Assembly (NCBI GenBank): GCA_963700635.1
Contig: CAVOYH010000003.1
Span: forward strand, 1,216,001-1,280,000
Reading direction: 5' to 3'
Length of the DNA stretch: 64,000 nucleotides
DNA from: an uncultured Bacteroidota bacterium
GTDB lineage: Bacteria; Bacteroidota; Ignavibacteria; UBA10030; UBA6906
Shown: positions 34,550 to 52,200 of the stretch, piece by piece
Layout: each line of letters starts with the position of its first letter
Numbering within the stretch: position 1 is the first letter of the stretch
Made by a program: the position numbers and the translations under genes
The notes under the pieces: model-generated
What the model saw: the letters and a program-made list of their open reading frames with translations, nothing else
Databases searched by the model: none
Told to the model about the DNA's origin: nothing

Positions 34550-34552
34550 GTG

Positions 34553-34590: not shown

Positions 34591-34622
34591 CACTCCTGCA
34601 AACCTATTCTTACAGATTGGAA
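34587..34622. promoter_or_regulatory. Paired candidate enhancer sites upstream of ccmF
   Basis: TTTTCA-N4-TGCAAA (34587) and TTCTTA-N4-TTGGAA (34607). Confidence 0.45.
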
Positions 34623-34702
34623 AGGCCCAGCGGGATCGCCGGTGCAGCCCGCCCAAACCCCCCTCTATTCATCCTATTCGCGTATTTTCCCCCTTCCACC
34701 TA

Positions 34703-34717
34703 TGGCACGCATGTTGA
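34703..34717 (+). promoter_or_regulatory. Sigma54 -24/-12 promoter upstream of ccmF
   Basis: TGGCACG-CATG-TTGA. Confidence 0.72.
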
Positions 34718-34752
34718 ACCATAAAAAGTGATCAAGCACTTCTGGAGTTGGA

Positions 34753-36980: not shown

Positions 36981-37235
36981 ATGCAAACGCAAATAACACA
37001 ACGCCTGCCAAACAATGTCGCGGGTAGATATTTCACCACCGAAGAGTGTGATGGATGCGCCTACTGTGCCTCTATCGCGCCGGAAAACTTTGATTTTGAA
37101 AAGGCCAGCAACACATACTTTGTCAGCTGCCAGCCGCGGAACGCGGAAGAAGAAGAGTATATGCAGGAGGCGGCGGATGACTGTCCGGTGGATGCTATTC
37201 GTATAGAAGAAACCGTTGCCGTGAAGTTTGATTGA
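36981..37235 (+). CDS. Monocluster ferredoxin
   Basis: CDGCAYC...AP.NF...CPVDAI; acidic 84-aa protein. Confidence 0.88.
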   Translation: MQTQITQRLPNNVAGRYFTTEECDGCAYCASIAPENFDFEKASNTYFVSCQPRNAEEEEYMQEAADDCPVDAIRIEETVAVKFD

Positions 37236-37293
37236 TCAGCGGTCCCGACATCCTTCACGGTCTAGCCACGCCACAGAGTGCACAAACGATAGG

Positions 37294-38631
37294 ATGGTTT
37301 CCATGGAATCAAAACCGGACAAGGAAACAAAAACAGACAAGCAGCACCATTCGGTGGAAGCACAACTGATTTACGGACAGATGGATGACCCTCTCTGGGA
37401 TTACAGCCACCATCTCCTGCCGCCGATGTCTTCGTCCGCAACATTCCGGCTGGATAGCGCGCAACGCGGTGCCCAGGGATTCACCGAATTCGCCCACCGC
37501 ACTGACGAAGTGCAGGTGAAGAGCAAAGCCCCGATCTATATCTACGATCGCCTGGGCGAACCGAACAAGGACATGCTCGAGGCGAATCTGGCGTGCGCTG
37601 AAGGCGGTGACATCGCCGTCACATTTGGAAGCGGTATGGCGGCGATCTCCGGGATCCTCGGCATCCTCACGGGTTCAGGCAGCGAAGTGATCGCCCACAA
37701 GGTGCTGTACGGGTGTTCGTACTCGCTGCTGACAAACTGGTATCCCCGTTTGAAGATCAATGTCAAGTTTGTGGATTTCAGCAATCCGCCTGAAGTGGCC
37801 GCAGCCATCACACGGAATACCCGCGTGCTGTATATGGAATCTCCGGTGAACCCCACGATGCGTCTGGTGGATCTCCGTGCAATCACCCAGATTGCGGAAG
37901 AGGCAAACAAGAACCGGGCTGCTGATGAGCGGTTGCATACCGTTGTGGATAACACGTTTGCCTCGCCATTCTGCCAGAGGCCGATCTCCCTCGGGATTGA
38001 TTTTGTAGTACATTCTCTGACAAAAGCGATCGGGGGCTTTGGCACTGATGTCGGAGGCGTCGTCATTGGGCCCCGCTGGAGCCATGACAGACTGATGCTG
38101 TACCGGAAGGACTTTGGCGGAATTTTGTCGGCGAAAAGCGCCTGGCCTGTGCTTGTAGTCGGGCTCCCTTCCCTCGCAGTCCGGATGCGGCAGATGCAGG
38201 CGACCGCTCAACGGGTTGCGGAGTTTCTTGAACAACGTTCCGAATTCGAGAGGGTTCTGTATCCAGGCCTGCAGTCTTTTCCCCAGGCGGATTTAGCCAG
38301 GCGGCAGATGGTCGATTTTGACGGACTCTTCGCGCCGGGCTCGATGATCTACTTTGTCATGAAGGGAAAAACCGCCCGTGATGCACTCAAGCGGGCCGAA
38401 CGGTTTATCGACCACGTTGCACAAGAAGCGTATTGTATCACACTCGCCGTGAGCCTCGGAAATATCAGAACACTCATAGAACACCCCGGCTCCATGACAC
38501 ACTCCGCCATTCCGGCGGAAGAACAGGTCGGGAAGGGCCTTGAACCCGGGGGTGTCCGGCTCGCGGTGGGGCTGGAGAAGCCGGAAGATATCATCAAGGA
38601 TCTGGCGTTTTCTCTTGACGCAACAACGTGA
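37294..38631 (+). CDS. Methionine gamma-lyase-like PLP enzyme (Cys/Met metabolism family)
   Basis: SGMAAI, LYGC (the Cys typical of methionine gamma-lyases), ESPVNPT, VDNTFA, HSLTK (PLP Lys), LAVSLG, MTHS. Confidence 0.8.
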   Translation: MVSMESKPDKETKTDKQHHSVEAQLIYGQMDDPLWDYSHHLLPPMSSSATFRLDSAQRGAQGFTEFAHRTDEVQVKSKAPIYIYDRLGEPNKDMLEANLACAEGGDIAVTFGSGMAAISGILGILTGSGSEVIAHKVLYGCSYSLLTNWYPRLKINVKFVDFSNPPEVAAAITRNTRVLYMESPVNPTMRLVDLRAITQIAEEANKNRAADERLHTVVDNTFASPFCQRPISLGIDFVVHSLTKAIGGFGTDVGGVVIGPRWSHDRLMLYRKDFGGILSAKSAWPVLVVGLPSLAVRMRQMQATAQRVAEFLEQRSEFERVLYPGLQSFPQADLARRQMVDFDGLFAPGSMIYFVMKGKTARDALKRAERFIDHVAQEAYCITLAVSLGNIRTLIEHPGSMTHSAIPAEEQVGKGLEPGGVRLAVGLEKPEDIIKDLAFSLDATT

Positions 38632-38684: not shown

Positions 38685-38975
38685 ATGGCTAAAGGTGCGG
38701 TGACATTCGATATCGAAACCTGCAAAGGATGTGAACTCTGTATCGACGCATGTCCGCAGGGAAGTCTTCAGATCTCTCCCAGGATTAATACCCAGGGGTA
38801 TCATTACGCCGTCCTGATAGAAGACAATTGCACCGGTTGTACGAATTGTGCACTTGTGTGCCCCGATGCCGTGATTACCGTGTACCGTGAAACCAAGAAG
38901 GCAAAAGTTCCTGTTGCACGGATTTCACAGGTGACGGAAAATATTACCGTGACACTGACCGACGAAAGGAAATAG
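38685..38975 (+). CDS. 2-oxoacid:ferredoxin oxidoreductase delta subunit (2[4Fe-4S])
   Basis: CKGCELCIDACP and CTGCTNCALVCPD. Confidence 0.9.
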   Translation: MAKGAVTFDIETCKGCELCIDACPQGSLQISPRINTQGYHYAVLIEDNCTGCTNCALVCPDAVITVYRETKKAKVPVARISQVTENITVTLTDERK

Positions 38976-38977
38976 TC

Positions 38978-40066
38978 GTGGGTGACATTCGACTCATGAA
39001 AGGAAATGAGGCGCTTGCAGAAGCCGCCATCCGCGCCGGCTGCCAGGCCTATTTTGGTTATCCCATCACGCCACAATCAGAGGTGCTGGAGTACCTCGCC
39101 GATGAAGGGCGTAAGCGCGGTATGATTGTCCTGCAGGCGGAAAGCGAAGTGGCGTCTATCAACATGGTCTATGGCGCCGCCGGTGCAGGAGCACGAGTCA
39201 TGACATCATCATCCAGTCCGGGCATGAGCCTGATGATGGAGGGGGTGTCGTATATCGCCTGCGCTGAATTGCCGTGTCTGCTCGTGAATGTGAACAGAGG
39301 GGGACCGGGTCTCGGAACCATCCAGCCTTCTCAGAGCGACTACTTCCAGGCAGTGAAGGGAGGCGGCCATGGTGATTACCGGTTGATCGTGCTTGCCCCC
39401 TCCAGCGTGCATGAAATGGCGGATTTTGTGTATGAGGCGTTTGATCTGGCGGACACCTACCGGAATCCGGTAATGATTCTTACCGACGGCGCACTCGGAC
39501 AGATGATGGAAAAGGTAGAGTTCCGGGAGTATGATCCTGCGCAACATAAGAACCCCAAGCCATGGGCGACCACCGGAAAACCTTCTACCCGTCCGCCGAA
39601 TGTGATTACGTCTCTTCATATGCAAGCCGAAAAGATGGAAGAAGTGAACCGGAAACTTCAGAAGAAATACGCGACGATTCAGGAACGTGAAGTGAGATAT
39701 GAACTCCTGGAAGCGGAGGATGCAGAGTACCTCGTCGTTGCGTACGGGCTGGCGGCCCGGATCGCACACCGCGGCGTGGAAATTGCCCGGGCGAAGGGTC
39801 ACAAGGTCGGACTGCTCCGTCCGATTACGCTGTTTCCCTATCCGAGTACGGTGCTGCAGTCTCTTGCAGCACGTCTACAGGGAATCCTGGTTGTCGAAAT
39901 GAACGCCGGCCAGATGGTGGAGGATGTCCGCCTGGCCGTCGAAGGACGTACGCCGGTCAGTTTCTACGGGCGGATGGGAGGCGTTATCCCGTCTCCTAAC
40001 GAAGTCGCCGATGCTCTGGACCGGATGATCACCAAAACCGTCACACATCCCGTGGAGGCGAACTGA
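38978..40066 (+). CDS. vorB: 2-oxoacid:ferredoxin oxidoreductase alpha subunit (VorB-type)
   Basis: MKGNEA, YFGYPITPQSE, QAESE, RGGPGLG, VEMNAGQM. Confidence 0.88.
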   Translation: MGDIRLMKGNEALAEAAIRAGCQAYFGYPITPQSEVLEYLADEGRKRGMIVLQAESEVASINMVYGAAGAGARVMTSSSSPGMSLMMEGVSYIACAELPCLLVNVNRGGPGLGTIQPSQSDYFQAVKGGGHGDYRLIVLAPSSVHEMADFVYEAFDLADTYRNPVMILTDGALGQMMEKVEFREYDPAQHKNPKPWATTGKPSTRPPNVITSLHMQAEKMEEVNRKLQKKYATIQEREVRYELLEAEDAEYLVVAYGLAARIAHRGVEIARAKGHKVGLLRPITLFPYPSTVLQSLAARLQGILVVEMNAGQMVEDVRLAVEGRTPVSFYGRMGGVIPSPNEVADALDRMITKTVTHPVEAN

Positions 40067-40067
40067 C

Positions 40068-40853
40068 ATGGCACAGGAGATTCTGCAGGAGATGATAACA
40101 CCTGATCTCGAGGGGATGGAGTGTGTGTACGAACGTCCGGAAACGCTGCTGGATACGCGGTTCCACTATTGCCCCGGTTGCGGGCACAGTGTTGTCCATC
40201 GTGTCCTGATGGAGGTGATCCAGGAGCTCGGGATTACAGACAAGACCGTGGGTATCGCACCGGTGGGATGTTCGGTTCTGGCATATCATTACATGGGTAT
40301 TGACATGCAGGAAGCCGCGCACGGACGGGCGAGTGCTGTGGCGACCGCCGTCAAGCGGATTCTCCCGGACCGGTTTGTATTTTCCTATCAGGGTGACGGC
40401 GACCTCGCCGCCATCGGCACAGCCGAGACCATTCATACGTGTAACCGAGGCGAAAACATCTTGATGATCTTTATCAACAATGGGATTTATGGGATGACCG
40501 GCGGTCAGATGGCACCCACGACGCTGCTCGGGATGAAGACATCCACATCGCCGGCAGGGCGGACCGTGGAAACGGCCGGTCACCCGCTGAAGATTACCGA
40601 GCTGGTAGCACAGCTCCCCGGCGTTGCCTATGTCACGCGTCAGTCGGTTCACGCACCCAATGCCGTGCGTCAGCTGAAAAAATCTCTGACCAAGGCATTT
40701 CAATATCAGAAAGAATCACGAGGGACCTGTTTCATCGAGGTCGTATCCAATTGCCCGTCGGGATGGAAAATGACGCCCGCCGAGTCCAATACGTGGCTCG
40801 TGGAAAACATGTTTCCAGTCTATCCGCCCGGTGATCTCCGGACACCACAATAA
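40068..40853 (+). CDS. 2-oxoacid:ferredoxin oxidoreductase beta (TPP-binding) subunit
   Basis: YCPGCGH, HGRA, QGDGDL...NNGIYGMTGGQ, SNCP. Confidence 0.92.
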   Translation: MAQEILQEMITPDLEGMECVYERPETLLDTRFHYCPGCGHSVVHRVLMEVIQELGITDKTVGIAPVGCSVLAYHYMGIDMQEAAHGRASAVATAVKRILPDRFVFSYQGDGDLAAIGTAETIHTCNRGENILMIFINNGIYGMTGGQMAPTTLLGMKTSTSPAGRTVETAGHPLKITELVAQLPGVAYVTRQSVHAPNAVRQLKKSLTKAFQYQKESRGTCFIEVVSNCPSGWKMTPAESNTWLVENMFPVYPPGDLRTPQ

Positions 40854-40891
40854 GGACGATTATCAAGCTGACCGAGAACAAAGGATCTGTT

Positions 40892-41443
40892 ATGACTCAT
40901 GAAATGCTCATTGCGGGTTTTGGCGGCCAGGGTGTGTTGTCGATGGGAATGACTCTCGCCTATGCCGGCATGATCGAAGGGAAGGAAATCACCTGGATGC
41001 CTTCCTACGGTCCCGAAATGCGCGGCGGTACGGCGAATTGTATTGTCATTGTGTCGGATCAACGGATTAATTCGCCGATCGTCACAACGTTCGATACCGT
41101 CATCGCACTGAACCAGCCGTCCCTTGACAAGTTTGAACAGGCTGTAAAACCCGGTGGACTGCTTCTGTACGATTCCACAAGTACGATCACGCCGCCAACA
41201 CGGACGGATATTCAGTTGCTCGGCATTCCGGCGGGCGACGAAGCGGTGAAACTCAAAAACACGAAGGTGTTGAACATGATCGTGCTCGGGGCCTTCCTCG
41301 ACCGGTCGCATGTCCTGGATATGTCGGCAATTCTCAAAGCCCTGAGCAAAGTTCTTCCGGAACGGTATCACCATCTCCTTCCGGTCAATGAGCAGGCGCT
41401 CCGGCGTGGCGTGGAGCTCTCAGGTCAACCCGTGTCAGCGTAA
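40892..41443 (+). CDS. 2-oxoacid:ferredoxin oxidoreductase gamma subunit
   Basis: AGFGGQG, PSYGPEMRGG, NMIVLGA. Confidence 0.92.
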   Translation: MTHEMLIAGFGGQGVLSMGMTLAYAGMIEGKEITWMPSYGPEMRGGTANCIVIVSDQRINSPIVTTFDTVIALNQPSLDKFEQAVKPGGLLLYDSTSTITPPTRTDIQLLGIPAGDEAVKLKNTKVLNMIVLGAFLDRSHVLDMSAILKALSKVLPERYHHLLPVNEQALRRGVELSGQPVSA

Positions 41444-41508
41444 GCGGCCGGGGGTAGTGGAAAAGACAACGTACTCACGAAGTGGATTCGTCCGGAGGAG
41501 AGGATTCT

Positions 41509-41757
41509 ATGGCCCCACCATGCGTACATTCCTGCAAAGGGTTGTGTAACGCGTTAAAAGCCGCTGAACACCGTGAAAAAGAGAATCTTGCTGAATACCG
41601 GCGTTTTGCTGCGGAGTGTGACTACCCTGAGGTGAAGCAGATCCTGGATTCACTCGTTGCCGAGCGTGAGCAAACGCTGGTCATGCTCAAAGAAAAACGG
41701 GAGATCCTTGCCCAGAAGTTCGAAGTCATTGATCGTATCAACGACAGTTTCGCGTGA
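41509..41757 (+). CDS. Small half-ferritin-like protein with an N-terminal CxxxCxxxC
   Basis: GGAGG SD; A.HRE....Y..FA....PEVK..L..L...E pattern of a rubrerythrin half. Confidence 0.6.
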   Translation: MAPPCVHSCKGLCNALKAAEHREKENLAEYRRFAAECDYPEVKQILDSLVAEREQTLVMLKEKREILAQKFEVIDRINDSFA

Positions 41758-41760
41758 CCC

Positions 41761-42012
41761 ATGGCACACCCACCGCACGATAAACTGAATTGGACCGATT
41801 TGTCGATCCAGGATATTCTCGAGCTCGCTATCGAGGACGAAATTGAGGCACGCGATTACTATACGACTGCGGCCGACCACGCAGGAGACAGCAACACCCG
41901 GCGCATGTTGCTCGAGCTTGCCGGGATGGAGCAGGGACATGCCGATGTGCTTCGCAAGGAGCTGGAAGACCTCCGGCTGCAGCGGGATCTGGAAACGGGA
42001 ATGGCTGACTGA
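41761..42012 (+). CDS. Half-rubrerythrin/ferritin family protein
   Basis: LELAIEDEIEARDYY...LAGMEQGH (E..E and ExxH ligands). Confidence 0.8.
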   Translation: MAHPPHDKLNWTDLSIQDILELAIEDEIEARDYYTTAADHAGDSNTRRMLLELAGMEQGHADVLRKELEDLRLQRDLETGMAD

Positions 42013-42090: not shown

Positions 42091-43209
42091 ATGAGCAAAT
42101 ACACTATTGCATGGCTGCCTGGTGATGGGATTGGTAATGATGTGATGGAGGCTACCCGGCTTGTTCTGGACCGTATTCATCTGGACGCCGAATATATTCA
42201 CGGGGATATCGGGTGGGAATTCTGGTGTAAAGAGGGAGAGGCGTTCCCGCAGCGCACGACCGAGCTCCTTGGCCGGGTACACGCCGCCATGTTCGGCGCC
42301 ATTACCTCCAAGCCGGTAAAAGCCGCGGAAGCGGAACTCGTGCCCGAACTCAGGGGAAAAGGCCTCATCTATCGCTCTCCCATCGTCCGGATGCGGCAGA
42401 TGTTTGATCTGTATACCTGCCTTCGTCCGTGTAAGGCCTATGCCGGAAACCCCTTGAACCTGAAAGACGGAATCGATCTGGTTGTCTTCCGTGAAAACAC
42501 CGAGGACCTCTATGCCGGAGTTGAATTCCATCCCGTTCCCAAAGAACTCGCAGGTGTGCTGGAGAAGCTCTCGAAGCCGTTTCATGTGTTCAAAGATATC
42601 CCCTCCGACCAGTATGCTATTTCCTGCAAAGTGAATACCCAGAAGGGATCTGAACGGATTGTGAGGGCGGCGTTCGAGTTTGCAAAGAAACACAAGCGCC
42701 GCAAAGTGACCGTCGTGCATAAGGCGAACGTTGTCCGGGCGACCGATGGGCTCTTTCTGGAAGAAGCGAGGAAGGTCGCCCGTGCGTATCCCGACATTCA
42801 GTTTGACGAAGCCAACGTGGATGCCATTTGTATGTGGTTGCTTAAAAACCCGTTCAATTATGAAGTACTCGTCGCACCAAACCTCTATGGCGATATCATC
42901 TCCGATCTGGCCGCCCAGATGGTCGGCGGGCTTGGTTTCGGTTGCTCGGGGAATATCGGCCAGAAACTTGCCGTGTTTGAACCTTCGCACGGTTCCGCCC
43001 CCAAGTATGCAGGCCAGTATAAAGTGAACCCGATCGCCACCATCCTCGCGGCAAAAATGATGCTGGACTGGCTGGGGGAGACCGAAAAGGGGATTCAACT
43101 CGAGCGCGCAACGGCAGCCGTCATCAAGGAAGGCCGCGTCCGTACATACGACATGGGCGGGTCCAGCTCCACAATGGAGATGGCAGAAGCCATTAACGCA
43201 CACCTATGA
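42091..43209 (+). CDS. Isocitrate/isopropylmalate family beta-decarboxylating dehydrogenase
   Basis: PGDGIG, YRSPIVRMR, RENTEDLY, VHKANV, NLYGDIISD, FEPSHGSAP. Confidence 0.92.
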   Translation: MSKYTIAWLPGDGIGNDVMEATRLVLDRIHLDAEYIHGDIGWEFWCKEGEAFPQRTTELLGRVHAAMFGAITSKPVKAAEAELVPELRGKGLIYRSPIVRMRQMFDLYTCLRPCKAYAGNPLNLKDGIDLVVFRENTEDLYAGVEFHPVPKELAGVLEKLSKPFHVFKDIPSDQYAISCKVNTQKGSERIVRAAFEFAKKHKRRKVTVVHKANVVRATDGLFLEEARKVARAYPDIQFDEANVDAICMWLLKNPFNYEVLVAPNLYGDIISDLAAQMVGGLGFGCSGNIGQKLAVFEPSHGSAPKYAGQYKVNPIATILAAKMMLDWLGETEKGIQLERATAAVIKEGRVRTYDMGGSSSTMEMAEAINAHL

Positions 43210-44117
43210 GTCCAACAGGGCTCATACTGCACGAGGTCGGACTCCGGGATGGACTTCAAATGGAACACACACCCGTTCCGACCGAAAAAAAGATTCAGTG
43301 GGTCAGAGAGCTCGCAGCAACCGGACTGGATGTCCTCCAGGTAGGCTCCTTCGTCCATCCGACGAAGGTTCCGCAGATGGCTGACACGGATGAGCTTTTC
43401 CGGCAGCTGATGGTGCCCGGCATGATGCCCCCGAGTGTGGTTCTTTCCGGCCTCGTGCTGAACGAGAAGGGACTCGAACGCGGACTGACCTGCGGCGTCC
43501 CCATGTTCTGCATGGGGGTATCGGCAAGTGAGACACACAGTAAGAAAAACACCGGCATGTCGGTATCGGAAGCGACGGACCGGATACTTGCGATGGGAAA
43601 ACTGGCGTTGCAGGAAAACCGCTCAGTACAGGTTTCCGTGCAATCGGCGTTCGGTTGCGGGTACGAAGGCCACGTTACCCCGGAGCGCGTCGTGTCTATC
43701 GTGAGCCGCTACATCGAAAACGGGTTCGTGCATATCAGTCTTGCCGATACCGCCGGCCATGCAACACCGGATCTGGTGGAGACACTTTTTACAACCATCA
43801 GCAAACTCGACGGCGCTGCTGAATTTGCCTGCCACTTCCACAATACATACGGCATGGCCATCGCCAATTGTCTTGCCGCCAGACGTGCGGGGGTACGCTC
43901 GTTCGAGTCGTCCGTCGCCGGCCTCGGCGGCTGTCCGTTCACAAAGGTTGCCGGTGGAAACGTGTGCACGGAAGATTTTGTGCACATGCTGCACCGCATG
44001 GGAATGCGTACTGATGTGCGGCTTGAGGGATTGATTGCGGTCGCACAGGATGTGGCATCTTTTTTCAATCGGGAAATGCCCGGGATGGTTTACAAGACGG
44101 GACCAATAAGGTCGTAA
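43206..44117 (+). CDS. HMG-CoA lyase family enzyme
   Basis: EVGLRDGLQ, GSFVHP..VPQMAD, ASETHS..N, ADTAG, HFHNT, GLGGCPF...GN..TED; no regulatory domain. Confidence 0.9.
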   Translation: MSPTGLILHEVGLRDGLQMEHTPVPTEKKIQWVRELAATGLDVLQVGSFVHPTKVPQMADTDELFRQLMVPGMMPPSVVLSGLVLNEKGLERGLTCGVPMFCMGVSASETHSKKNTGMSVSEATDRILAMGKLALQENRSVQVSVQSAFGCGYEGHVTPERVVSIVSRYIENGFVHISLADTAGHATPDLVETLFTTISKLDGAAEFACHFHNTYGMAIANCLAARRAGVRSFESSVAGLGGCPFTKVAGGNVCTEDFVHMLHRMGMRTDVRLEGLIAVAQDVASFFNREMPGMVYKTGPIRS

Positions 44118-44119
44118 CG

Positions 44120-45325
44120 ATGACCGCACACCGCTCACTCCTTGCCGGTATCCGCGTTCTGGACCTCACGAACGTTCTCTCCGGGCCATTTGCCACCTTG
44201 CATCTTGCACTGCTCGGCGCGGAAGTGATCAAGATCGAGAATCCAAAAGACGGAGACCTGGCGCGCAAACTCGGTTGTGTTCCAAAGTATAACCAGATGC
44301 TCATGGGCACCAGCTTTCTTGCCCAGAACGCCAACAAGAAGTCTCTGACGCTCAATCTCAAATCCGCTGAAGGAAAAGAGATTTTCGAGAAATTGGTGGC
44401 GACAGCGGACGTTGTTGTGGAGAATTTCCGCCCCGATGTTATGGGCCGGCTGGGATTGTCGTACGATGTGCTTCGTGGTATCAATCCCCGGCTGATCTAT
44501 TGCGGGATTTCAGGCTTCGGACAGCATGGCCCGGACGCGCTAAAACCTGCATATGACCAGATCATCCAGGGCTTAAGCGGTGAGATGGCCATCAACGGTG
44601 ACGAGCGGCTGAGCCCCCTGCGCGCGGGCTTCCCGGTCTGTGATACCGTAGGCGGATTGAATGCCGCATTTGCCATCATGGCTGCTCTTTTCTGGCGCGA
44701 GCGCACGGGCGAGGGCCAATCGGTTGATGTGGCACTTCTGGACTCCATCATGCCGCTGATGGGGTGGGTCGTGGCAAATCTTATGATCGGCGGTCAACAA
44801 CCGGTTCTTATGGGGAATGACAACTTTACGGCTGCACCATCGGGTGTGTTCGCGACTCAGGATGGATTCATCAACATCGCAGCGAACAAGCAGGAGCAGT
44901 GGGAAGCGGTAGCGGATGTGCTCGGCCTCCCCGGGCTGAAAACAGATCCCCGGTTTCAGGAACGTGATACTCGCAAAAAGAACCGCAAGGCCCTGACACC
45001 ATTGCTCGAGGAAAAACTGAAGGACCACAACACCGCATTTTGGGTGGAAGTTCTTAATGCGCACGATGTTCCTTCCGGCGCCATATTAACTCTTGAACAA
45101 TCAATGCATCAGCCTCAGGTCGAACACCGCAAGACATTTGGAACGGTCGACGTGGAAGGTATCGGCACAATTCCGCTGTTCAACCTGACTGCCAAATTCG
45201 AAAAGACGCCCGGGATGGTTGTAACCCCGCCTCCAAAACTTGGAGAGCACAACGGAGAGATCCTGAAGTCTCTTGGTTATGAGGAAGCGCAGATTGCCGG
45301 TCTCAAAGGCCGTAACGTCATTTAG
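44120..45325 (+). CDS. Class III (CaiB/BaiF) CoA-transferase
   Basis: LAGIRVLDLT, GAEVIKIE..GD, NKKS, ENFRP, PAYD (catalytic Asp), PPKLGEH. Confidence 0.93.
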   Translation: MTAHRSLLAGIRVLDLTNVLSGPFATLHLALLGAEVIKIENPKDGDLARKLGCVPKYNQMLMGTSFLAQNANKKSLTLNLKSAEGKEIFEKLVATADVVVENFRPDVMGRLGLSYDVLRGINPRLIYCGISGFGQHGPDALKPAYDQIIQGLSGEMAINGDERLSPLRAGFPVCDTVGGLNAAFAIMAALFWRERTGEGQSVDVALLDSIMPLMGWVVANLMIGGQQPVLMGNDNFTAAPSGVFATQDGFINIAANKQEQWEAVADVLGLPGLKTDPRFQERDTRKKNRKALTPLLEEKLKDHNTAFWVEVLNAHDVPSGAILTLEQSMHQPQVEHRKTFGTVDVEGIGTIPLFNLTAKFEKTPGMVVTPPPKLGEHNGEILKSLGYEEAQIAGLKGRNVI

Positions 45326-45359
45326 GAGAGAACCTGGAAACATCACCACGAGGTCGTGT

Positions 45360-46649
45360 ATGGGAATGACAATTGTTGAAAAGATCCTTGCGCGCGCCAG
45401 TGCACAAAAAGCGGTCAGGGCCGGTGACGTCCTGGAACCGCGTGTTGATCTTGCAATGTCGCATGAGAATGCCGCACTTGTCATCAATCAGTTTCTTGAG
45501 ATCTACAAAGGCACAGGGCTTGAACCGACGGTCTGGGATCCCTCACGTGTGGCCATCATCTTTGACCACAGGGTGCCTGCAGAATCGGCGAAAACGGCAA
45601 CCAACCAGAAGAAGGTGCGCGAATTTGTTGCACGCCACATGATCAAGAAGTTTCATGACATCCGGGGCGACAGGGGTGGGATCTGCCACCAGATCCTCCC
45701 CGAAAGCGGATACGTGCGTCCGGGCTCCGTGGTGGTCGGCACCGATTCCCACACCACGAGTCATGGTGCGCTCGGAGCGTTTGCTTTTGGCATCGGAGCG
45801 ACGGAGATGGCCAGCGTATGGACTCTGGGGTATGCAGTGAACGTTGAGGTCCCGGCAACCATAAAGGTGGAAGTGACGGGTGACTTTCCCCGTATGGTCA
45901 GTCCGAAAGACCTGATTCTTCATGTGATCGGCACACTGTCGGCCCAGGGAGCGAACTTCCGCGTCATCGAGTTTCATGGCCCGACAATCAGTCGCATGTC
46001 CACGTCCGGCCGTCTGGTGATCTGTAATATGTCCGTCGAAGCAGGCGCGACCTCCGGTATCGTTCCGGCTGACGCGGAAACAGAGTCCTATCTCCGCGAA
46101 GAGGCGGGAGTTCAGGACCCGATAATTCCGGTGCTGCCCGATCCGGATGCGGTGTATGAAAAGACAGTTACGTTCGATGTTTCAAAACTCACACCGCAGG
46201 TCGCGTGTCCTCATACGGTTGATAATGTGAAGTCCGTTGAGCTGGTCTCCGGGACGCGCATCCATCAGGTGGTCATCGGTTCCTGCACCAACGGGCGGCT
46301 GGACGACATTGCCGCCGCCGCCGCGATCGTCCGGGGGAAAAGTGTCGCGTCCACGACGAGAATGCTGGTCTTTCCGGCCTCGGGCAGGATATATCAACGG
46401 GCCCTGGAGCACGGGTATGTGGCCGATCTCATCGGCGCCGGTGCCGTCGTGATGAATCCGGGATGCGGCCCGTGTCTCGGCATTCATGAAGGTGCGTTAG
46501 GCGATGGTGAAGTGGCCCTGTCCACAACCAACAGAAACTTCAAGGGACGGATGGGAAATCCGACCGCGGAAGTGTATCTCTGTTCTCCGGCCGTTGCGGC
46601 TGCATCGGCGATCGCCGGCGAAATAACCGATCCAAGGAAGGGGGCGTAA
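45360..46649 (+). CDS. Isopropylmalate/homoaconitase-type dehydratase, large subunit
   Basis: DHRVP, GICHQ, TDSHT, GSCTNGR, GCGPCLG, TNRNFKGRMG. Confidence 0.93.
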   Translation: MGMTIVEKILARASAQKAVRAGDVLEPRVDLAMSHENAALVINQFLEIYKGTGLEPTVWDPSRVAIIFDHRVPAESAKTATNQKKVREFVARHMIKKFHDIRGDRGGICHQILPESGYVRPGSVVVGTDSHTTSHGALGAFAFGIGATEMASVWTLGYAVNVEVPATIKVEVTGDFPRMVSPKDLILHVIGTLSAQGANFRVIEFHGPTISRMSTSGRLVICNMSVEAGATSGIVPADAETESYLREEAGVQDPIIPVLPDPDAVYEKTVTFDVSKLTPQVACPHTVDNVKSVELVSGTRIHQVVIGSCTNGRLDDIAAAAAIVRGKSVASTTRMLVFPASGRIYQRALEHGYVADLIGAGAVVMNPGCGPCLGIHEGALGDGEVALSTTNRNFKGRMGNPTAEVYLCSPAVAAASAIAGEITDPRKGA

Positions 46650-46654
46650 AGGCC

Positions 46655-47170
46655 ATGGCGAAAGTGGTGTACTCCATCGGTGACGATATTTCGACAGATG
46701 TTATCTATCCCGGCCGTTACATGGCAACCGTACTGCCAACGGAAACCCCTCAGTTTGCGTTTGCCGATGATGCCGCATTCAACGACCAGCTCAGGAACAA
46801 ACAGATTCCTCCGGGAAGTATCATTGCCGCCGGCGGGAACTTTGGATGTGGCTCTTCCCGCGAGCAGGCGGTATCCACCCTGAAGGGATATGACCTTGTG
46901 ATCGTGGCACGCAGCATTGCGCGTATTTTTATGCAGAACGCGGTCAACCTGGGACTACGGCTGGTTGTTGCACCCGGCTGGGAAGCGTCCGCGGGTGACG
47001 ACATCGAATTGGCGGAGGAGCATGTGGTCAACCGGACAACAGGCCAGCGGTATACAATCGAGCGTCTTCCCCGCGCACGGCAGGCGATCGTCGATGCAGG
47101 CGGTCTGATTTCGTATACACGCAAGCGACTCGTTGAAGGATCCACTCTCACTCCCCCGACACGAGGCTGA
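46655..47170 (+). CDS. Isopropylmalate/homoaconitase-type dehydratase, small subunit
   Basis: DDISTDVIYPGRY, NFGCGSSREQA, ARIF..NAVNLG, GGL. Confidence 0.92.
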   Translation: MAKVVYSIGDDISTDVIYPGRYMATVLPTETPQFAFADDAAFNDQLRNKQIPPGSIIAAGGNFGCGSSREQAVSTLKGYDLVIVARSIARIFMQNAVNLGLRLVVAPGWEASAGDDIELAEEHVVNRTTGQRYTIERLPRARQAIVDAGGLISYTRKRLVEGSTLTPPTRG

Positions 47171-47180: not shown

Positions 47181-47645
47181 ATGGAAGCTGCTGAACACCC
47201 TACTGTCCGAACAAAATCTTTCACGTACAAGACCGGCACGACGTGGACGGATGGACGTGCCGGGACGCTGGCGTCGGAAGGCAAGCCCACCCTCCGCATA
47301 TCAAGTCCGCCGGAATTCAAGGGCGAACGGGGCGTATGGACGCCGGAGGATCTGTTTGTCGGCGCTGTGGAAGTATGCCATATGACGACGTTTCTCGCAT
47401 TCGCCGGGCAGCGAAAGATCAACGTCCTCTCGTACAAGAGCCATGCCAATGGTGTGCTGGAGTTCATTGACGGAGACTATCGATTCACCCGCATCGTGAT
47501 ATTTCCGACGATCACGGTCGGGAACGCGGTGGTGGAGACAGAGGTCCATACCCTCCTGCGTGAGGCCGAAAAACACTGCCTGGTCGCGAATTCGATTGCG
47601 TCGATCGTTGAAGTGAATCCGACAATTGTCGTTCAGCCCGGATGA
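47181..47645 (+). CDS. OsmC/Ohr family protein
   Basis: PPEFKG..WTPEDLF..AV.VC, plus a second Cys in AEKHCLVANS. Confidence 0.85.
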   Translation: MEAAEHPTVRTKSFTYKTGTTWTDGRAGTLASEGKPTLRISSPPEFKGERGVWTPEDLFVGAVEVCHMTTFLAFAGQRKINVLSYKSHANGVLEFIDGDYRFTRIVIFPTITVGNAVVETEVHTLLREAEKHCLVANSIASIVEVNPTIVVQPG

Positions 47646-47702: not shown

Positions 47703-49109
47703 GTGAGCAATAAGTTTATGGGACGACCGTTCTTGAATATCGATGTTGACCTTCTAAAGAAGTACGACAGGCCGGGACCACGATACACCAGTTATCCGAC
47801 CGCCCCCATCTTCCAGCCCACGTTCACCGCCGCAAATTTTCGGGATGAAATCCTTGCCACAAACCCTCCCGGGGCGAGTGACGACATTTCGCTGTATGTC
47901 CATATCCCTTTCTGCGACACCCTCTGTTTTTTCTGTGGATGTACGATGTTGGTGACACGGGACCGGAACCGGATCGATGAGTATGTACGGTACCTGAAGG
48001 TAGAAATTACGCGTGTGGCCGAGCTTGTTGCTCCCGGCCGGCGCGTAACACAACTGCACTGGGGGGGTGGTACGCCAACCCATCTTTCACCGGATCAGAT
48101 TCTGGATATCGCCGGAGCACTCCGTTCGGCATTTGTTTTTGCGCCGGATGCAGAATGTAGTGTCGAAATTGACCCGCGGGAGCTTGACCGCCGCCATCTG
48201 GAGGCGCTTGCAGAAGCAGGCTTCAACCGCATGAGCATGGGGGTGCAGGATTTTGAACTGCAAGTGCAGGCCGCAGTCAACCGGATCCAACCGGAGTGGA
48301 TCTCGCGCCAGGTCTATGGGTGGGCGAGAGAACTCGGTTTCTCGAGTATCAATATCGATTTAATGTACGGCCTGCCGCATCAAACGGTGGATTCATTCGA
48401 GCGCACCATTCGGGGAATCATCACCTATAACCCCGACAGAATTGCGGTCTTCAACTATGCGCACGTCCCGTGGCTGAAACCACACCAGAAGTTGATCCAG
48501 CAGGATATGCTGCCATCTCCCGAATCCAAACTTGACATACTGAAGATGACGATCGAGCTCCTCACAGAGGGCGGTTATGAGTACATCGGAATGGATCACT
48601 TTGCCAAACCTGAAGATGAACTTGCCAGGGCGCGGGAAAGCCGCACGCTGTACCGCAACTTCCAGGGATACTCGACCAAAGCCGGCGCGGACCTCTACGG
48701 TTTTGGCATGTCATCCATCAGCCACTTCCAGAACGTCTACGCACAGAACACCAAAATCCTCCCTGACTACTACAAAGCTCTCGATGCAGGGACGCTGGCA
48801 ACAATTCTCGGATACCGGATGACCCCGGATGATCATCTGCGCAAGCATGTCATCATGCGCCTGATGTGCGATCTGGAGCTGGACATGGGATCGGTCGAAC
48901 GGCAGTTCGGAATCCGGTTTGCGGAGTATTTTGCCACGGCACTCAAAGCCCTGGTTCCACTGGAACAGGATGGATTGGTCGAGTGTACATCTGACCGGAT
49001 AGTGATTGTCGGTCCGGGTCGATTACTTCTGCGCAATATTGCGATGTGTTTTGACGCATATCTCGAACGCCTCAGCAAAGAAAAACCCATCTTCTCCCGC
49101 ACCGTTTGA
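47703..49109 (+). CDS. hemN: Oxygen-independent coproporphyrinogen III oxidase
   Basis: GPRYTSYPTA, HIPFCDTLCFFCGC, GGGTP, IGMDHFA, RNFQGY. Confidence 0.96.
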   Translation: MSNKFMGRPFLNIDVDLLKKYDRPGPRYTSYPTAPIFQPTFTAANFRDEILATNPPGASDDISLYVHIPFCDTLCFFCGCTMLVTRDRNRIDEYVRYLKVEITRVAELVAPGRRVTQLHWGGGTPTHLSPDQILDIAGALRSAFVFAPDAECSVEIDPRELDRRHLEALAEAGFNRMSMGVQDFELQVQAAVNRIQPEWISRQVYGWARELGFSSINIDLMYGLPHQTVDSFERTIRGIITYNPDRIAVFNYAHVPWLKPHQKLIQQDMLPSPESKLDILKMTIELLTEGGYEYIGMDHFAKPEDELARARESRTLYRNFQGYSTKAGADLYGFGMSSISHFQNVYAQNTKILPDYYKALDAGTLATILGYRMTPDDHLRKHVIMRLMCDLELDMGSVERQFGIRFAEYFATALKALVPLEQDGLVECTSDRIVIVGPGRLLLRNIAMCFDAYLERLSKEKPIFSRTV

Positions 49110-49213
49110 ATACTGCTTCGTTTGCGCGGGGGATCGTGCGCGCAAACCGGATAGAAGGAGAGAGCTTGCTTATTCTCTTTCGAAGTGCGATATTAAAACC
49201 AAAGACCCACCGT

Positions 49214-52200
49214 ATGCTTGCCATCTCCCTCTTGCCCCGGCTGCTCATTTTCACCCTTCTGATTCCCGTCTTTGCCTATGCCCAGATGCCCCAACTGTAC
49301 GACAGCTGGCGGTGGGCCCGGTTTGGGAAGGAAGCCGGCCTGTCTTCCGAGAAGATCCTGCAGCTTCATGAATCCCAGAATGGTGAAGTATGGGTGTACA
49401 CGGCGGGCGGCATTAACCGGTTTGATGGATTTCAGTGGATTCCGGTGAAAGTGCCGAACATACCGGTGGAGGGAGTCCATGACCTTCGCATCTCCCCCGA
49501 CACAGCCGGCATTCTCTTGAGTTATGATTACATGATCTATGCTGTGAGGCGAGACACCGTTGTGGCTATTCCGGTTTCTGACTCCCGGGGTCCTCTTGCC
49601 ACGTATGCGACGTGGCGGGAACCGGGTGGATCGCTGGTCGTTCGGGGAGATACGGCACTGTACCGCATTACCGGCACGAATGTCTCTACCCTTCCCTCTC
49701 CGTTTGCTCCTTCTCAGATCCGAAACGTGTACCCACCCGTGCCGGCAAACTTCATTTTTCCTTCAGATCTGGGGCTCTGGTTCAAAGCCGGACCGGCTCT
49801 ATTCCGGTACGAGTCGGGAAACTGGGAAAACATGTATCACTCTCCCGGTGGCTTCCTGCGCCTTCACCATCTTGTGGAAAACAAGGCCGGATCGGGGATG
49901 GTCATACTCGAACCCGTTACCGGAGACGTACGCATCTTCGAATGGTCCCGTTCCGGACCGCTTCAAGAACTTCGCGGCGAAAGCGGTGACCTCGTGCAAT
50001 CACTCACGGTCGATCCCGACGGGCGTTTTCTCCTGCTTTATACTTCCGGGGAACTCCGGTTTCGCCATAACGGACACTGGTCATGGCTTCCCCCTCTGCC
50101 GCCCCCGGTTGCACAGGCACGGTTTCTCAAGTTCGGATCCAGAGGCGATCTCTGGGTGGGAGGTGATGACGGTCTCTTTTACTGCCGTATCTCCCGGGAC
50201 CGCTGGCTGAACTGGAAAGAACCACTCCCTTCCCTCGCGAATATGATCAACGAAATTGTCCTGGCCCGGGATGGCACCTTCTGGATTGGCACACGCGATG
50301 GAATAGAGATACGCAAGCCCGACGGTCAAACACAACGAATCAGGGAGTTGTCCGGTATACCTCTGGGCCGTGTGACTGCCATAGGTGAAGACCGGGACGG
50401 CCATATCTGGATTGGCAGTGGAGCCGCCTTTGCCGGTGCATTCTGCTGGAATGGCCGGACCTGGAACCACTATGGTGTGAAGGAGGGATTAGCTGCTCCG
50501 CGCATCCATCGGATTGCAAAAGACCGGCGGGGGCGATTGTGGTTTCTCGGTCTAAACACGGGACGGCTTGTCCCGGGTCTCGTCGACGAACCGGGTGCTT
50601 TTGTCCTGGAAGACAGAACATTTATCCGCTGGGGAAAAGAGGAGGGTCTGCTCGATGGCCGCGTGTACGCGTTTGTTGAAGACGCAAAGGGTGCGTACTG
50701 GTTCGGAACATGGTCGGGCCTCAGCCGGTTTCACAATGGCCAGTGGACGTACTGGCAAAGGGATCGTGGGTTGCGCGAATCACGGGTCTGGACTCTCGCC
50801 GTGGACTCAACGGATCGTGTTTTTTTTAGTCATCAGTTCACCGGACTGGGTTACTTTGATGCACACGACAGCGTACACTATTTTGGTAATGCCGATGGTC
50901 TGATCGGAGACCAGGTTTGGGAAGTGGACGTGGACCAACGCGGATGGGTATGGGTCGCTACGAGCAGTGGCCTTGGATGTTGGACTGGTTCTGAGTGGTT
51001 TCGATTTGATTCACATGCAGGCTTGCCCAATGACAAACTGTGGCCGATTCTGCCGATGGGTCGTGAAATTCTCGTCGGCACCCTGGGCGATGGTGTGGCC
51101 GTTCTCAGGCTTGACAGTCTGAACACGGTACCACCCCGAGTTGTCATTGCCGAACCTGTGGTGGAAGGTGATGACGCCTCGCTGTCATGGACCCCGCATG
51201 CGTATTGGGGGGATCTTCCCGCGATGGGTATCAAGACTCGCTTTCGGCTCTCCGGCACTGCGTGGTCCACCTGGAGCCTGCAGCATGCCGTTACCATACG
51301 TGGCCTGCCCGCAGGGACCCACCAATGTGAAGTCCAGGCAGAAAGTCCCCTTGGACAAGTCCGATCACAGTCGGCCGTACGTACCTTTACCATTCCTCCC
51401 CCTCTGTACCTGCGCCCGGTTGTGGCCCTGCCTATTGTGATCCTTCTTACGCTCGTGATCACGCTGGCGCTTGTCGGATGGCTGCGCCGTCAATCCTACA
51501 ACCGGACGATTCGGGAAAACGAGGCGAAGTTCAGGGCACAATACAAGGGGAATCCCATTCCAACTTTTACTTTTAGAAGACTTGCTGATGATTTTGTCTT
51601 GAACGACTGTAATGACGCCGCAGAGGTAATCACGCTCGGCAATTCCCGTGAATGGTTGGGAAAACGTTTTGATGAAATCCTTCCCCATGCGAGTGATGCG
51701 AAAGACCTGCTGGAGGAGTGTGTCCGAACGAGTTCCACTATTCGGACGGATTACAGTTATCAATATCAATCGGTAAACCGGAGGGTGGATCTCGCCGTGA
51801 CATTTGCATTCGTCCCTCCCGACTTTGTCCTGGTACACACCGAAGATGTCACCGAACGAAAACTGAGCGAGGAGTATCTGAAACAATCCCGTGAGCAATT
51901 ACGTGCCCTGGCGGCACGCTTGCAGTCTGTCCGTGAAGAAGAACGGACGATGCTTTCGCGGGAGATCCATGATGAGCTGGGACAACTTATGACGGGCTTG
52001 AAAATGGATCTGGCGTGGATCCGGCGGAAGGTCGTGGATCTGGGCCGCGAAATTCCCGACGCGGTGTCCCAGCGTATGGTCCAGATGAATGGTCTGCTCG
52101 ACGATGCGATTCAAACGGTTCGCAAGATTGCCGGACAACTGCGCCCGGCCATTCTGGACGATCTGGGGCTTGTGCCGGCAATCGAGTGGCAGGCCCGCGA

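Follow-up and report, generated by a model that had tools for sequence, protein, structure and literature searches.

The DNA analysed here is a stretch of 64,000 nucleotides (referred to below as the window) from the genome of an uncultured Bacteroidota bacterium, and our subject is a cassette of five genes at positions 42091-47170. The five open reading frames (ORFs) are co-directional, have intergenic gaps of -4, 2, about 35 and 5 bases, and are called DH, LY, CT, LC and LD in their order (Table 1). A preliminary description of this DNA had read them as leucine-type enzymes in which a lyase and a CoA-transferase replace the usual synthase. The five linked genes were confirmed, all with strong domain matches, and no LeuA/CimA-type synthase was found in the window. 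A chance origin of the cassette is ruled out by the domain E-values and by the conservation of the cluster.

The PF00682 match of LY spans model positions 3-260 of 260, and the PF02515 match of CT spans positions 1-366 of 366. The start codon of LC is probably the ATG at 45360 or 45366. DH, CT, LC and LD were below every NCBIfam equivalog cut-off, which places them, as judged by these models, in unnamed subfamilies. For example, DH scored 193.7 bits with the LeuB equivalog TIGR00169 (cut-off 353.2) and missed the cut-offs of all isocitrate dehydrogenase (ICDH) equivalogs. LC did not reach the LEU2 equivalog and scored 430.6 bits with TIGR02083 (cut-off 610.65), LD scored 101.8 bits with TIGR02084 (cut-off 245.85), and the LeuC/LeuD equivalogs TIGR00170 and TIGR00171 were far under their cut-offs. 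The best NCBIfam model of CT was succinate--glutarate CoA-transferase, at 301 bits far under the cut-off of 750, and its closest solved structures were a 'formyl-CoA transferase' (10uh) and then succinate--hydroxymethylglutarate CoA-transferase. For LY the closest solved structures were hydroxymethylglutaryl-CoA (HMG-CoA) lyases (198 bits).

The catalytic and metal-binding motifs of HMG-CoA lyase, in the numbering of the human enzyme, are an N-terminal Arg-Asp, an H-x-H and a Cys in a G-C-P loop. The LY motifs RDGLQ, HFHNT and GLGGCPF align with those of 1YDO and 6NDS; among the orthologues, RDGLQ was kept in 62 of 64, GLGGCPF in 59 of 64, and H-x-H in all listed variants. The cluster cysteines of LC (Cys307, Cys367 and Cys370) were invariant in 41/41 orthologues, and GCGSSRE of LD was present in 30/30. 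By these motifs, the catalytic hardware of the cassette enzymes is intact. In the protein database the LY product is a 285-aa form starting from an internal Met (43260), which would drop the catalytic RDGLQ. The longer start is likely correct, because the homologues are 303-307 aa long.

Table 1. Genes of the cassette (first five rows) and its surroundings, with positions in the window
Feature	Positions	Strand	Size and family	Profile matches
DH	42091..43209	+	372 aa; isocitrate/isopropylmalate dehydrogenase (Iso_dh) family, full length	PF00180 E 2.5e-86
LY	43206..44117	+	303 aa; HMG-CoA-lyase-family (DRE-TIM) TIM-barrel lyase	PF00682 E 7.5e-42; NF004283 276.5 bits (cut-off 246)
CT	44120..45325	+	401 aa; class III (CaiB/BaiF) CoA-transferase	PF02515 E 2.5e-120
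LC	45360..46649 (ORF 45273-46649)	+	about 429 aa; archaeal-type LeuC/HacA large subunit, Fe-S hydro-lyase	PF00330; NF001614 542.8 bits (cut-off 385)
LD	46655..47170	+	171 aa; archaeal-type LeuD/HacB small subunit	PF00694; TIGR02087 114.7 bits (cut-off 108.95)
Cys/Met-metabolism pyridoxal-phosphate (PLP) enzyme	37228..38631	+	methionine-gamma-lyase-like	PF01053 2e-93; best NCBIfam models methionine gamma-lyase, 324.7 bits (cut-off 549.7 missed)
Oxidoreductase delta	38685..38975	+	small 2x[4Fe-4S] ferredoxin-like	orthologue at locus L012 matches Fer4_7 and other Fer4 families
Oxidoreductase alpha	38978..40066	+	2-oxoacid:ferredoxin oxidoreductase (NCBI name VorB type)	POR_N, PFOR_II; NF005507 548.9 bits (cut-off 399)
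Oxidoreductase beta	40068..40853	+	thiamine-pyrophosphate-binding	PF02775 1.2e-19; PorB_KorB-type models under cut-offs
Oxidoreductase gamma	40892..41443	+		PF01558 4.9e-37
Small conserved ORF	41482..41757	+	91 aa; faint ferritin-like resemblance	no Pfam match; weak EncB-like match, E 0.0075
Small rubrerythrin/ferritin-like protein	41761..42012	+	83 aa	PF02915 6.3e-10
OsmC/Ohr-family peroxiredoxin-like	47181..47645	+	end of gene string; likely start 47181	PF02566 3.2e-13

Conserved linkage and genomic background

Species-representative genomes were scanned twice with homologues of LY, which gave 157 loci (151 unique), all in metagenome-assembled genomes (MAGs). For the LY- and the DH-anchored scans alike, the best 80 of more than 570 matches were used. 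By record title the LY loci came from more than 10 phyla, including Ignavibacteriota, Bacteroidota, Acidobacteriota, Gemmatimonadales, Zixibacteria, Calditrichaeota, Chloroflexota, Elusimicrobia, Armatimonadetes and Verrucomicrobiota. Linkage was counted in the 71 unique loci in which LY is flanked by 4.5 kb or more on each side. All five genes were present in 49 of them, LY-CT-LC-LD in 11, LY-CT only in 6, DH-LY-CT in 3, and DH-LY and LY-CT-LC in one each; all 71 were co-directional. The order DH-LY-CT-LC-LD was found in 42 of the 71, and in four more where one gene gave split matches, while CT adjoined LY in 70. The linkage of the five genes is therefore strongly conserved. Clustering of the flanking genes with a crude ORF caller revealed no further universally conserved neighbour; this caller recovered LY as an ORF in 64 of 80 loci and is weak where GC content is high, as spurious antisense ORFs there take the place of real genes.

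Among 61 relatives of the source genome, LY was present in 28. The HMG-CoA-lyase family model found the same 28, with LY as the sole family member in each, and none in the other 33. Orthologues of DH occurred in 26 of the 28 LY-positive relatives vs 1 of the 33 LY-negative ones. Here and below, absences are subject to MAG completeness and binning errors, and the relatives are non-independent samples.

These patterns bear on the possibility that LY and CT belong to leucine or ketone-body catabolism, LY as an ordinary HMG-CoA lyase and CT as a succinyl-CoA:hydroxymethylglutarate or acetoacetate CoA-transferase, with DH and LC/LD as unrelated neighbours. LY passes the corresponding NCBIfam model, the database names found were all 'hydroxymethylglutaryl-CoA lyase' among the matches listed, and the solved structures nearest to LY and the second-best one for CT belong to this chemistry. 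Furthermore, an acyl-CoA dehydrogenase and a 563-aa carboxyltransferase, possibly methylcrotonyl-CoA-carboxylase-like, are encoded elsewhere in the genome. However, DH and LC/LD flank LY and CT in a constant order in many phyla, and LY tracks DH rather than the carboxyltransferase, which is found in 56 of the 61 relatives, including some with no HMG-CoA-lyase-family gene. In addition, LY-CT can be swapped in place for an alkylmalate-type lyase between orthologous DH and LC/LD (see next section), and HMG has no 2-hydroxy-acid group, which aconitase-family enzymes require. We consider this explanation very improbable. Canonical leucine catabolism was likewise rejected as the home of LY, as gene context and phyletic pattern do not fit. 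The carboxyltransferase lies together with a MeaB-like GTPase and the acyl-CoA dehydrogenase at G000:C1:255925-258790 (locus L104; G000 is the source genome). It is kept at 63-83% identity across the relatives that have it, matched only mmdA in NCBIfam (345 bits, under the cut-off), and could be glutaconyl-CoA-decarboxylase-like or methylcrotonyl-CoA-carboxylase-like.

The source genome (4.2 Mb, 6 contigs, completeness 97) carries a canonical leuA-leuC-leuD-leuB operon on a separate contig (C4), the synthase of which passes the LeuA equivalogs. The cassette thus does not hold the only leuBCD genes of the genome, and it is a module separate from the leucine operon. LY and this true LeuA were the only two HMGL-like genes in the whole genome. 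The genome also has ketol-acid reductoisomerase (KARI), and neither CimA nor threonine dehydratase was found in it; the best 'IlvA' match was threonine synthase. It contains aconitase and a pair of isocitrate dehydrogenases, whose motifs are NADP-type in one and NAD-type in the other, as well as methylmalonyl-CoA mutase and mmdA-type carboxyltransferases. Rescue of propionyl-CoA from a dead end was tried as a purpose for the cassette and rejected as unneeded, since the mutase is present.

Two relatives given as 100 in completeness (G017 and G020) have the full string oxidoreductase-DH-LY-CT-LC-LD-OsmC. Their aconitase-family genes are aconitase and LC only, their sole HMGL-like gene is LY, and genome-wide no LeuA/CimA and no KARI were found. 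By gene content, this leaves LY and CT as the only enzymes there that are able to make or break a 2-alkylmalate skeleton, and it supports the earlier proposal that the lyase and transferase stand in place of the synthase. A different relative, G001, has CimA and the cassette; LeuA, canonical LeuC and KARI were not found. This suggests that the citramalate from CimA is handled by LC/LD and DH, which would be evidence for the methyl series and for forward flux in that genome. The DH frame is open for only 301 aa in G001 (G001:C6:151715-152563) and for 248 aa in G005 of the same genus (G005:C9:53632-54246); these may be frameshifts, pseudogenes or long-read indel/sequencing errors.

KARI (PF01450) was matched in 19/28 cassette-positive vs 8/33 negative relatives, so that nine positives were without it, and canonical LeuC was found in 18/28 vs 7/33. 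CimA occurred in 12 positives and 7 negatives, a short threonine-dehydratase-like gene in 2 and 13, and neither in 14 and 13, respectively. Given these splits, the cassette shows no complementarity with CimA or IlvA, and supply of the isoleucine precursor was rejected as its general purpose. KARI was not found in 34 of the 61 genomes of this order, many of them near completeness 100, which suggests that branched-chain amino-acid auxotrophy is widespread in the order.

Could DH, LC and LD simply be a second, redundant leuBCD set for leucine or isoleucine, with two passenger genes? Their family membership and the association of the cassette with KARI-positive genomes would agree with it. However, the complete cassette occurs in genomes with no LeuA, CimA or KARI found, and the three genes miss all leuB/leuC/leuD equivalog cut-offs. 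The NADP-type motif of DH is unlike that of the genome's LeuB, and the distinct LD loop is conserved in 29/30 orthologues. A redundant set is scarcely credible.

Proposed reactions, direction and substrate

We regard it as probable that the five genes form one module which handles a 2-alkylmalate through its CoA thioester. The fuller proposal, that this module is separate from amino-acid biosynthesis and runs in the cleavage direction on the citramalate series, is offered tentatively, its chances being somewhat below even. Taken one by one, cleavage as the physiological direction is slightly favoured, and the citramalate series is an evenly balanced call.

From the chemistry of the families, DH would interconvert a 2-oxoacid plus CO2 and NADPH with a 3-alkylmalate, and LC/LD would isomerise this to the 2-alkylmalate via an alkylmaleate. 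CT would then place CoA onto the 2-alkylmalate, with succinyl-, acetyl- and propionyl-CoA as candidate donors, and LY would split the 2-alkylmalyl-CoA into acetyl-CoA and the next-shorter 2-oxoacid. The likeliest series would be 2-oxobutyrate, (2R,3S)-3-methylmalate, citraconate, (R)-citramalate, (R)-citramalyl-CoA, and pyruvate plus acetyl-CoA. In the likeliest direction the net reaction would be 2-oxobutyrate + CO2 + NADPH -> pyruvate + acetyl-CoA with no net ATP cost, and it would be reversible in principle. In this organism the genes upstream would offer two sources of 2-oxobutyrate, namely the methionine-gamma-lyase-like enzyme and the adjacent ferredoxin oxidoreductase acting on propionyl-CoA. 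By the textbook free energies of the homologous reactions of the tricarboxylic acid (TCA) cycle, the chain should be near equilibrium. Cleavage should be feasible at cellular concentrations owing to NADPH coupling, CO2 and the formation of two molecules from one; the forward direction is possible, and both may be used.

The direction was approached through loci anchored on DH, with the orthologue from relative G045 as query. Of 80 loci, 27 with less than 6 kb downstream were set aside and 53 kept, and the motifs YRSPIVRMR and HGSAPK[YH] were present in 19/19 checked. LY and CT followed in 31 loci, whereas 7 had a lyase of the isocitrate lyase (ICL)/PEP-mutase superfamily and 3 a CitD/CitE fusion with CitF; a further 3 had only a fused aconitase-like gene and, separately, an HD-domain gene, and 2 had LY only. 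The ICL-type lyase, of about 310 aa, sits exactly at the LY-CT position, between DH and orthologous LC-LD with the same MATVLP loop. Its best solved matches were petal death protein (PDP, 190 bits), methylisocitrate lyase and 2,3-dimethylmalate lyase. The seven loci (L212, L215, L218, L239, L245, L251 and L260) are in MAGs labelled Verrucomicrobiota, Ignavibacteriae, Sumerlaeota, Anaerolineales/Anaerolineae and Aminicenantes. The Cit-type loci have acyl carrier protein (ACP) and HpcH/HpaI domains, together with further LeuCD-like hydro-lyases. Among solved structures, the CitD/E fusion was best matched by human citrate-lyase-beta-like protein and malyl-CoA lyase. In G045 itself, which is of the Cit type and given as 98% complete, no HMGL-like gene was found anywhere in the genome.

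One dehydrogenase, and in one variant the same isomerase, thus appears coupled to three unrelated cutters of tertiary 2-hydroxy acids, an arrangement that a pathway for alkylmalate C-C cleavage or formation predicts. Free-acid and ACP-ester lyases of the ICL/PDP and CitDEF types are cleavage enzymes in every known setting. Since two of the three lyase types are therefore cleavage enzymes, the cleavage direction is favoured for the whole module. The preliminary description had favoured a forward, 'TCA-like oxidative arm' and had deemed the reverse direction uphill; in our analysis the forward arm was not the better-supported direction, as the variant lyases beside DH and its NADP-type motif point to the reverse.

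Some DH-anchored loci were unusual. L190 (G045:C18:306000-323500), and also L214 and L247, have the order ferredoxin-oxidoreductase, x91, DH orthologue, HD-domain protein, fused aconitase-like protein (602 aa), LeuC-like, LeuD-like, CitD/CitE fusion, CitF, Memo-like and EamA transporter, an operon that pairs two hydro-lyases with a citrate/citramalate-lyase-type complex. In L203, L208 and L235 (also L228), from WOR-3 and other MAGs, the DH orthologue is followed by a fused aconitase-like gene and an HD-domain gene with no recognisable lyase nearby, and the LeuD-like loop reads PGKYLPLTDK. L224, L227 and L238 hold DH orthologues of 74-76% identity on contigs labelled Methanomassiliicoccales or Methanobacteriota MAGs; the gene beside DH is butyryl-CoA-dehydrogenase-type and uninformative, and these loci reflect either inter-domain transfer or mis-binned bacterial contigs.

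The same citramalate module could also be run forward, from pyruvate and acetyl-CoA over citramalyl-CoA and citramalate to 2-oxobutyrate, CO2 and NADPH, with the thioester passed to succinate or another acid. The oxidoreductase would then make propionyl-CoA, giving an energy-saving 2-oxobutyrate/propionyl-CoA route or a TCA-like oxidative arm. Several points speak for it. The LY and CT reactions are by established chemistry near equilibrium. The CimA product of G001 would have to pass through LC/LD and DH, as canonical LeuC is absent, and the source genome, with KARI and the leu operon and no CimA or threonine dehydratase, needs a 2-oxobutyrate source. The association of the cassette with KARI points the same way. 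According to a review, citramalate could form indirectly by (R)-citramalyl-CoA lyase and succinyl-CoA:(R)-citramalate CoA-transferase (PMC8307300). However, the orthologous DH is also coupled to the ICL/PDP-type lyases, there with orthologous LC/LD, and to the CitDEF-type ones, and these could not plausibly serve as synthases at the concentrations found in cells. The drive would be further weakened by NADP coupling, and because thioester hydrolysis no longer pulls the reaction. The nine positive relatives without KARI mean that 2-oxobutyrate for isoleucine is not the general purpose, and complementarity with CimA or threonine dehydratase is missing, as described above. Forward operation as the main role seems unlikely to us, although well above negligible.

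As to the cofactor, an Asp-Ile or a Lys-Tyr pair distinguishes NAD from NADP enzymes, a rule known from E. coli ICDH and Thermus isopropylmalate dehydrogenase. Within the source genome, LeuB and the NAD-type isocitrate dehydrogenase read HGSAPDIAG, the NADP-type ICDH HGTAPKYAG, and the cassette DH HGSAPKYAG; HGSAPKY was conserved in 42/42 DH orthologues and the substrate loop YRSPIVRMRQ in 41/42. DH is thus, by motif, an NADP-type dehydrogenase. Its loop RSPIVRMR aligns an Ile with Asn115 of ICDH, which binds the gamma-carboxylate, and a Val with Arg85 of Thermus homoisocitrate dehydrogenase (HICDH). The two isocitrate dehydrogenases of the genome read RS[IV]N. DH is without this Ser-x-Asn substrate motif, so the NADP-ICDH pattern is only half present in it (Lys-Tyr). 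The best NCBIfam and PDB neighbours of DH include homoisocitrate and isocitrate dehydrogenases.

In LD the loop GR[YF]MATVLP was found in 29/30 orthologues. Its recognition region reads YMAT(V), vs YLVY in the M. jannaschii isopropylmalate/citramalate isomerase (3VBA), YLRT in M. jannaschii homoaconitase (2PKP) and YNLT in a P. horikoshii protein (1V7L), and the loop is without Arg. One paper states that this region sets substrate preference (PMC7308503). Together, the DH and LD hints point to an uncharged side chain and do not separate methyl from larger alkyl groups.

Three considerations favour the methyl series. Citramalate or its CoA ester is handled by members of all three lyase families, namely the Chloroflexus Ccl, clostridial citramalate lyase, and petal death protein, which acts on (2R)-alkylmalates. 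CimA of G001 has no other isomerase to use. Furthermore, the methionine-gamma-lyase-like gene, the oxidoreductase and DH plausibly share 2-oxobutyrate, which according to one source arises from threonine and homocysteine and is oxidised to propionyl-CoA by anaerobes in a ferredoxin-dependent reaction (PMC8473912).

The same logic may instead serve another side chain, either the leucine/valine pair or a larger alkyl or carboxyalkyl group (the citrate or homocitrate series). The leucine/valine option would run between 2-oxoisocaproate, 3- and 2-isopropylmalate, isopropylmalyl-CoA, and 2-oxoisovalerate plus acetyl-CoA, and would serve carboxylase-independent degradation of leucine/isovalerate or valine-leucine interconversion in auxotrophs. 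It would suit an oxidoreductase above the cut-off of a model that NCBI names VorB, an LD loop with smaller residues than the M. jannaschii enzyme and so room for a bulkier group, and an order in which the 34 relatives without KARI are apparent branched-chain amino-acid auxotrophs living on peptides. For a carboxyalkyl group it can be said that the nearest named relatives of CT act on C5/C6 dicarboxylates, that DH has homoisocitrate and isocitrate dehydrogenases among its neighbours, and that the Cit-type variant resembles citrate lyase. However, DH has neither the Asn of ICDH nor the Arg of HICDH, the LD loop has no Arg, and the genome already possesses aconitase and two isocitrate dehydrogenases, all of which speak against the citrate and homocitrate series. 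As for the isopropyl series, the known lyases of the ICL/PDP, CitDEF and HMGL types release pyruvate, 2-oxobutyrate, oxaloacetate or glyoxylate-type products, and we know of none in the three families that releases 2-oxoisovalerate. Our literature search, with subscription papers and supplementary files outside its scope, found no mention of isopropylmalyl-CoA, homocitryl-CoA or ethylmalyl-CoA. The chances of a different side chain are rather small in our judgement.

Several observations weigh against citramalate cleavage, the reading we prefer. The presence of CimA without canonical LeuC, LeuA or KARI in G001 hints at forward flux, CimA stands alongside the cassette in 12 relatives, and the KARI association, although among relatives that are not independent, is compatible with a biosynthetic link. 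The Ala and Thr of the LD loop are smaller than the Val and Tyr of the M. jannaschii enzyme, possibly admitting a bulkier substituent, and the name VorB (2-oxoisovalerate type) would fit the leucine/valine series. Stereochemistry is a further point: the substrate of the CitDEF-type citramalate lyase that has been characterised is the (S) isomer, and the product of LeuCD-type enzymes is (R). Finally, 7 of the 53 DH-anchored loci had no recognised partner.

Surroundings of the cassette

The neighbouring oxidoreductase of the preliminary description is real and has four subunits (38685-41443). However, it lies upstream of the cassette, and the large downstream ORF (49106-52567, 1153 aa) is a histidine kinase. 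Orthologues of the delta subunit found by tblastn (56-81% identity) adjoin the alpha subunit. Alpha-subunit orthologues were present in 48 of the 61 relatives, cassette-less ones included, and in the carriers of this family the cassette is about 4 kb downstream of alpha. The cassette-less relative at L185 keeps ccmF, the PLP enzyme and the oxidoreductase. Inheritance alone could be the cause of the adjacency within the family. However, in a Bacteroidota MAG (L160/L195) the oxidoreductase is convergent and downstream of the cassette, and in a Holophagaceae MAG a non-orthologous two-subunit oxidoreductase (27-32% identity to the window subunits; OAFO_sf, 567.8 bits) is directly upstream of DH. 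These arrangements argue for a functional link, which recurs with a non-orthologous oxidoreductase. Oxidoreductase matches were found at 20 of the 157 LY-anchored loci.

The methionine-gamma-lyase-like gene is a possible producer of 2-oxobutyrate; it is a neighbour in the genomes of the family and outside the core cassette. The 91-aa ORF is kept after the oxidoreductase in relatives, and the OsmC-like gene comes after LD in several of them. Together with the rubrerythrin/ferritin-like gene, these two may shield oxygen-sensitive Fe-S enzymes. Beyond the OsmC-like gene lie a HemN-like radical-SAM gene and then the histidine kinase with a response regulator. A promoter/terminator scan of the locus gave chance-level counts (7 vs 6.8 expected and 15 vs 11.3 expected).

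At other loci the neighbours of the cassette were varied and included aldehyde dehydrogenase, GlgB, MFS, DUF3788, Usp, hemerythrin, an NfnAB-like pair and glutamine synthetase. In L017, L020 and L025 the cassette occurs with universal stress protein, hemerythrin and the NfnAB-like pair, which consists of a DHODB Fe-S/NAD-binding protein and a GltD-like Fer4_20/Pyr_redox_2 protein. This pair is downstream of the cassette in L017 and L020, but in L025 it is upstream and on the other strand. It could link the ferredoxin and NADPH pools to the NADP-type DH.

Further upstream in the window, at 29065-36978, is a run of multihaem cytochrome c genes (31936-33141 and 33122-34549; Cytochrome_C7/c3, Geobacter-type CxxCH motifs), adjoined by a CcmF-like cytochrome c maturation gene (34753-36978), which points to a metal- or electrode-respiring lifestyle. 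On the minus strand a trehalase (58036-60057) lies beside a fused trehalose-6-phosphate synthase/phosphatase (60100-62409), and upstream of this pair are a GHMP kinase, a nucleotidyltransferase and an MFS transporter (53888-57131).

Known systems and significance

The nearest precedent is in Chloroflexus aurantiacus, where (R)-citramalyl-CoA lyase (EC 4.1.3.46) and succinyl-CoA:(R)-citramalate CoA-transferase (EC 2.8.3.20) were reportedly described by Friedmann, Alber and Fuchs in 2006/2007. To our knowledge, the physiological role of that pair was left open after the revision of the 3-hydroxypropionate bi-cycle. By family and adjacency, LY and CT resemble it: the gene arrangement of an HMGL-family lyase adjoining a class III CoA-transferase is present in the window, with a 2-base gap, and both pairs would join pyruvate plus acetyl-CoA with free (R)-citramalate while keeping the thioester. 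A difference is that the pair is here flanked by an NADP-type dehydrogenase and an isomerase, both of them dedicated. The full cassette was found in MAGs labelled Chloroflexia (L118, L122 and L123). In protein-database searches no Chloroflexus protein was among the 120 matches listed by each, which were unnamed or 'hydroxymethylglutaryl-CoA lyase' entries.

The citramalate (pyruvate) pathway of CimA, LeuCD and LeuB operates in Methanocaldococcus, Geobacter and Leptospira, and has been proposed for acetate assimilation in Rhodospirillum rubrum. It would share with the cassette the interconversions of citramalate, citraconate, 3-methylmalate and 2-oxobutyrate and uses the same isomerase and dehydrogenase superfamilies. 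However, the cassette has a reversible lyase and transferase for the synthase, an NADP-type motif and its own LD loop, occurs without KARI, and likely runs in the reverse direction.

The reductive TCA arm uses citryl-CoA synthetase/citryl-CoA lyase or ATP-citrate lyase, NADP-isocitrate dehydrogenase, aconitase and 2-oxoglutarate:ferredoxin oxidoreductase. The order of reaction types would formally be the same: a ferredoxin oxidoreductase joins an acyl-CoA and CO2 to a 2-oxoacid, a second CO2 and NADPH lead to a 3-substituted malate, and isomerisation, thioester formation and a lyase follow, with acetyl-CoA and a 2-oxoacid as products. The differences are that the side chain in the cassette is probably alkyl and not carboxymethyl, that the lyase is of the HMGL and not the citrate-synthase family, that activation would be by CoA transfer and not by ATP, and that the LeuCD/LeuB-type paralogues are dedicated.

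The CitDEF lyases and the 2-alkylmalate lyases of the ICL superfamily replace LY and CT beside the orthologous DH and would give the same net C-C cleavage. However, they are absent from the window, and their products are acetate and a 2-oxoacid, so the thioester is not kept. HMG-CoA lyase (EC 4.1.3.4) has the fold, the catalytic motifs and the NCBI model in common with LY, whereas the context and phyletic pattern of LY are unlike leucine catabolism, as the candidate carboxyltransferase occurs irrespective of LY.

The chemistry of LY and CT therefore has its precedent in Chloroflexus. What appears new is a module of the 2-oxoacid elongation/TCA type with a lyase and a transferase for the synthase and with an NADP-type dehydrogenase. 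Our literature search (subscription papers and supplementary files being outside its scope) found no description of the five-gene set, of the lyase variants or of a reverse citramalate route, in agreement with the preliminary description, which knew of no pathway with this gene set.

A wider role is also conceivable, if quite improbable: the cassette may be the missing arm of a reversible 'citramalate/2-oxobutyrate cycle' that resembles the reductive TCA cycle. In it the adjacent oxidoreductase would convert propionyl-CoA, CO2 and reduced ferredoxin into 2-oxobutyrate, the cassette would turn this, with further CO2 and NADPH, into pyruvate and acetyl-CoA, and pyruvate would return to propionyl-CoA via oxaloacetate, succinate, succinyl-CoA and methylmalonyl-CoA. 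On paper, the net would be 2 CO2 + 8 [H] -> acetyl-CoA, or acetyl-CoA oxidation in reverse. If true, a hitherto undescribed cycle for fixing carbon or oxidising acetyl-CoA would be widespread among anaerobes that have not been cultured.

If the preferred reading, citramalate cleavage by one module, is true, a widespread set of genes annotated as 'HMG-CoA lyase', 'CoA transferase' and 'isopropylmalate' enzymes would be an unrecognised central-metabolic route. It would give these bacteria a thioester-conserving link from C4 to C3 plus C2 keto acids, fixing or releasing CO2 without ATP or B12, and would supply a physiological role for the orphan chemistry of (R)-citramalyl-CoA lyase and its CoA-transferase. 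The three interchangeable lyases around one dehydrogenase, two of them around the same isomerase, would make a clean natural experiment. Threonine, methionine and propionate catabolism, isoleucine precursors and CO2 incorporation would then have to be reread in metagenome models of soils, sediments and reactors.

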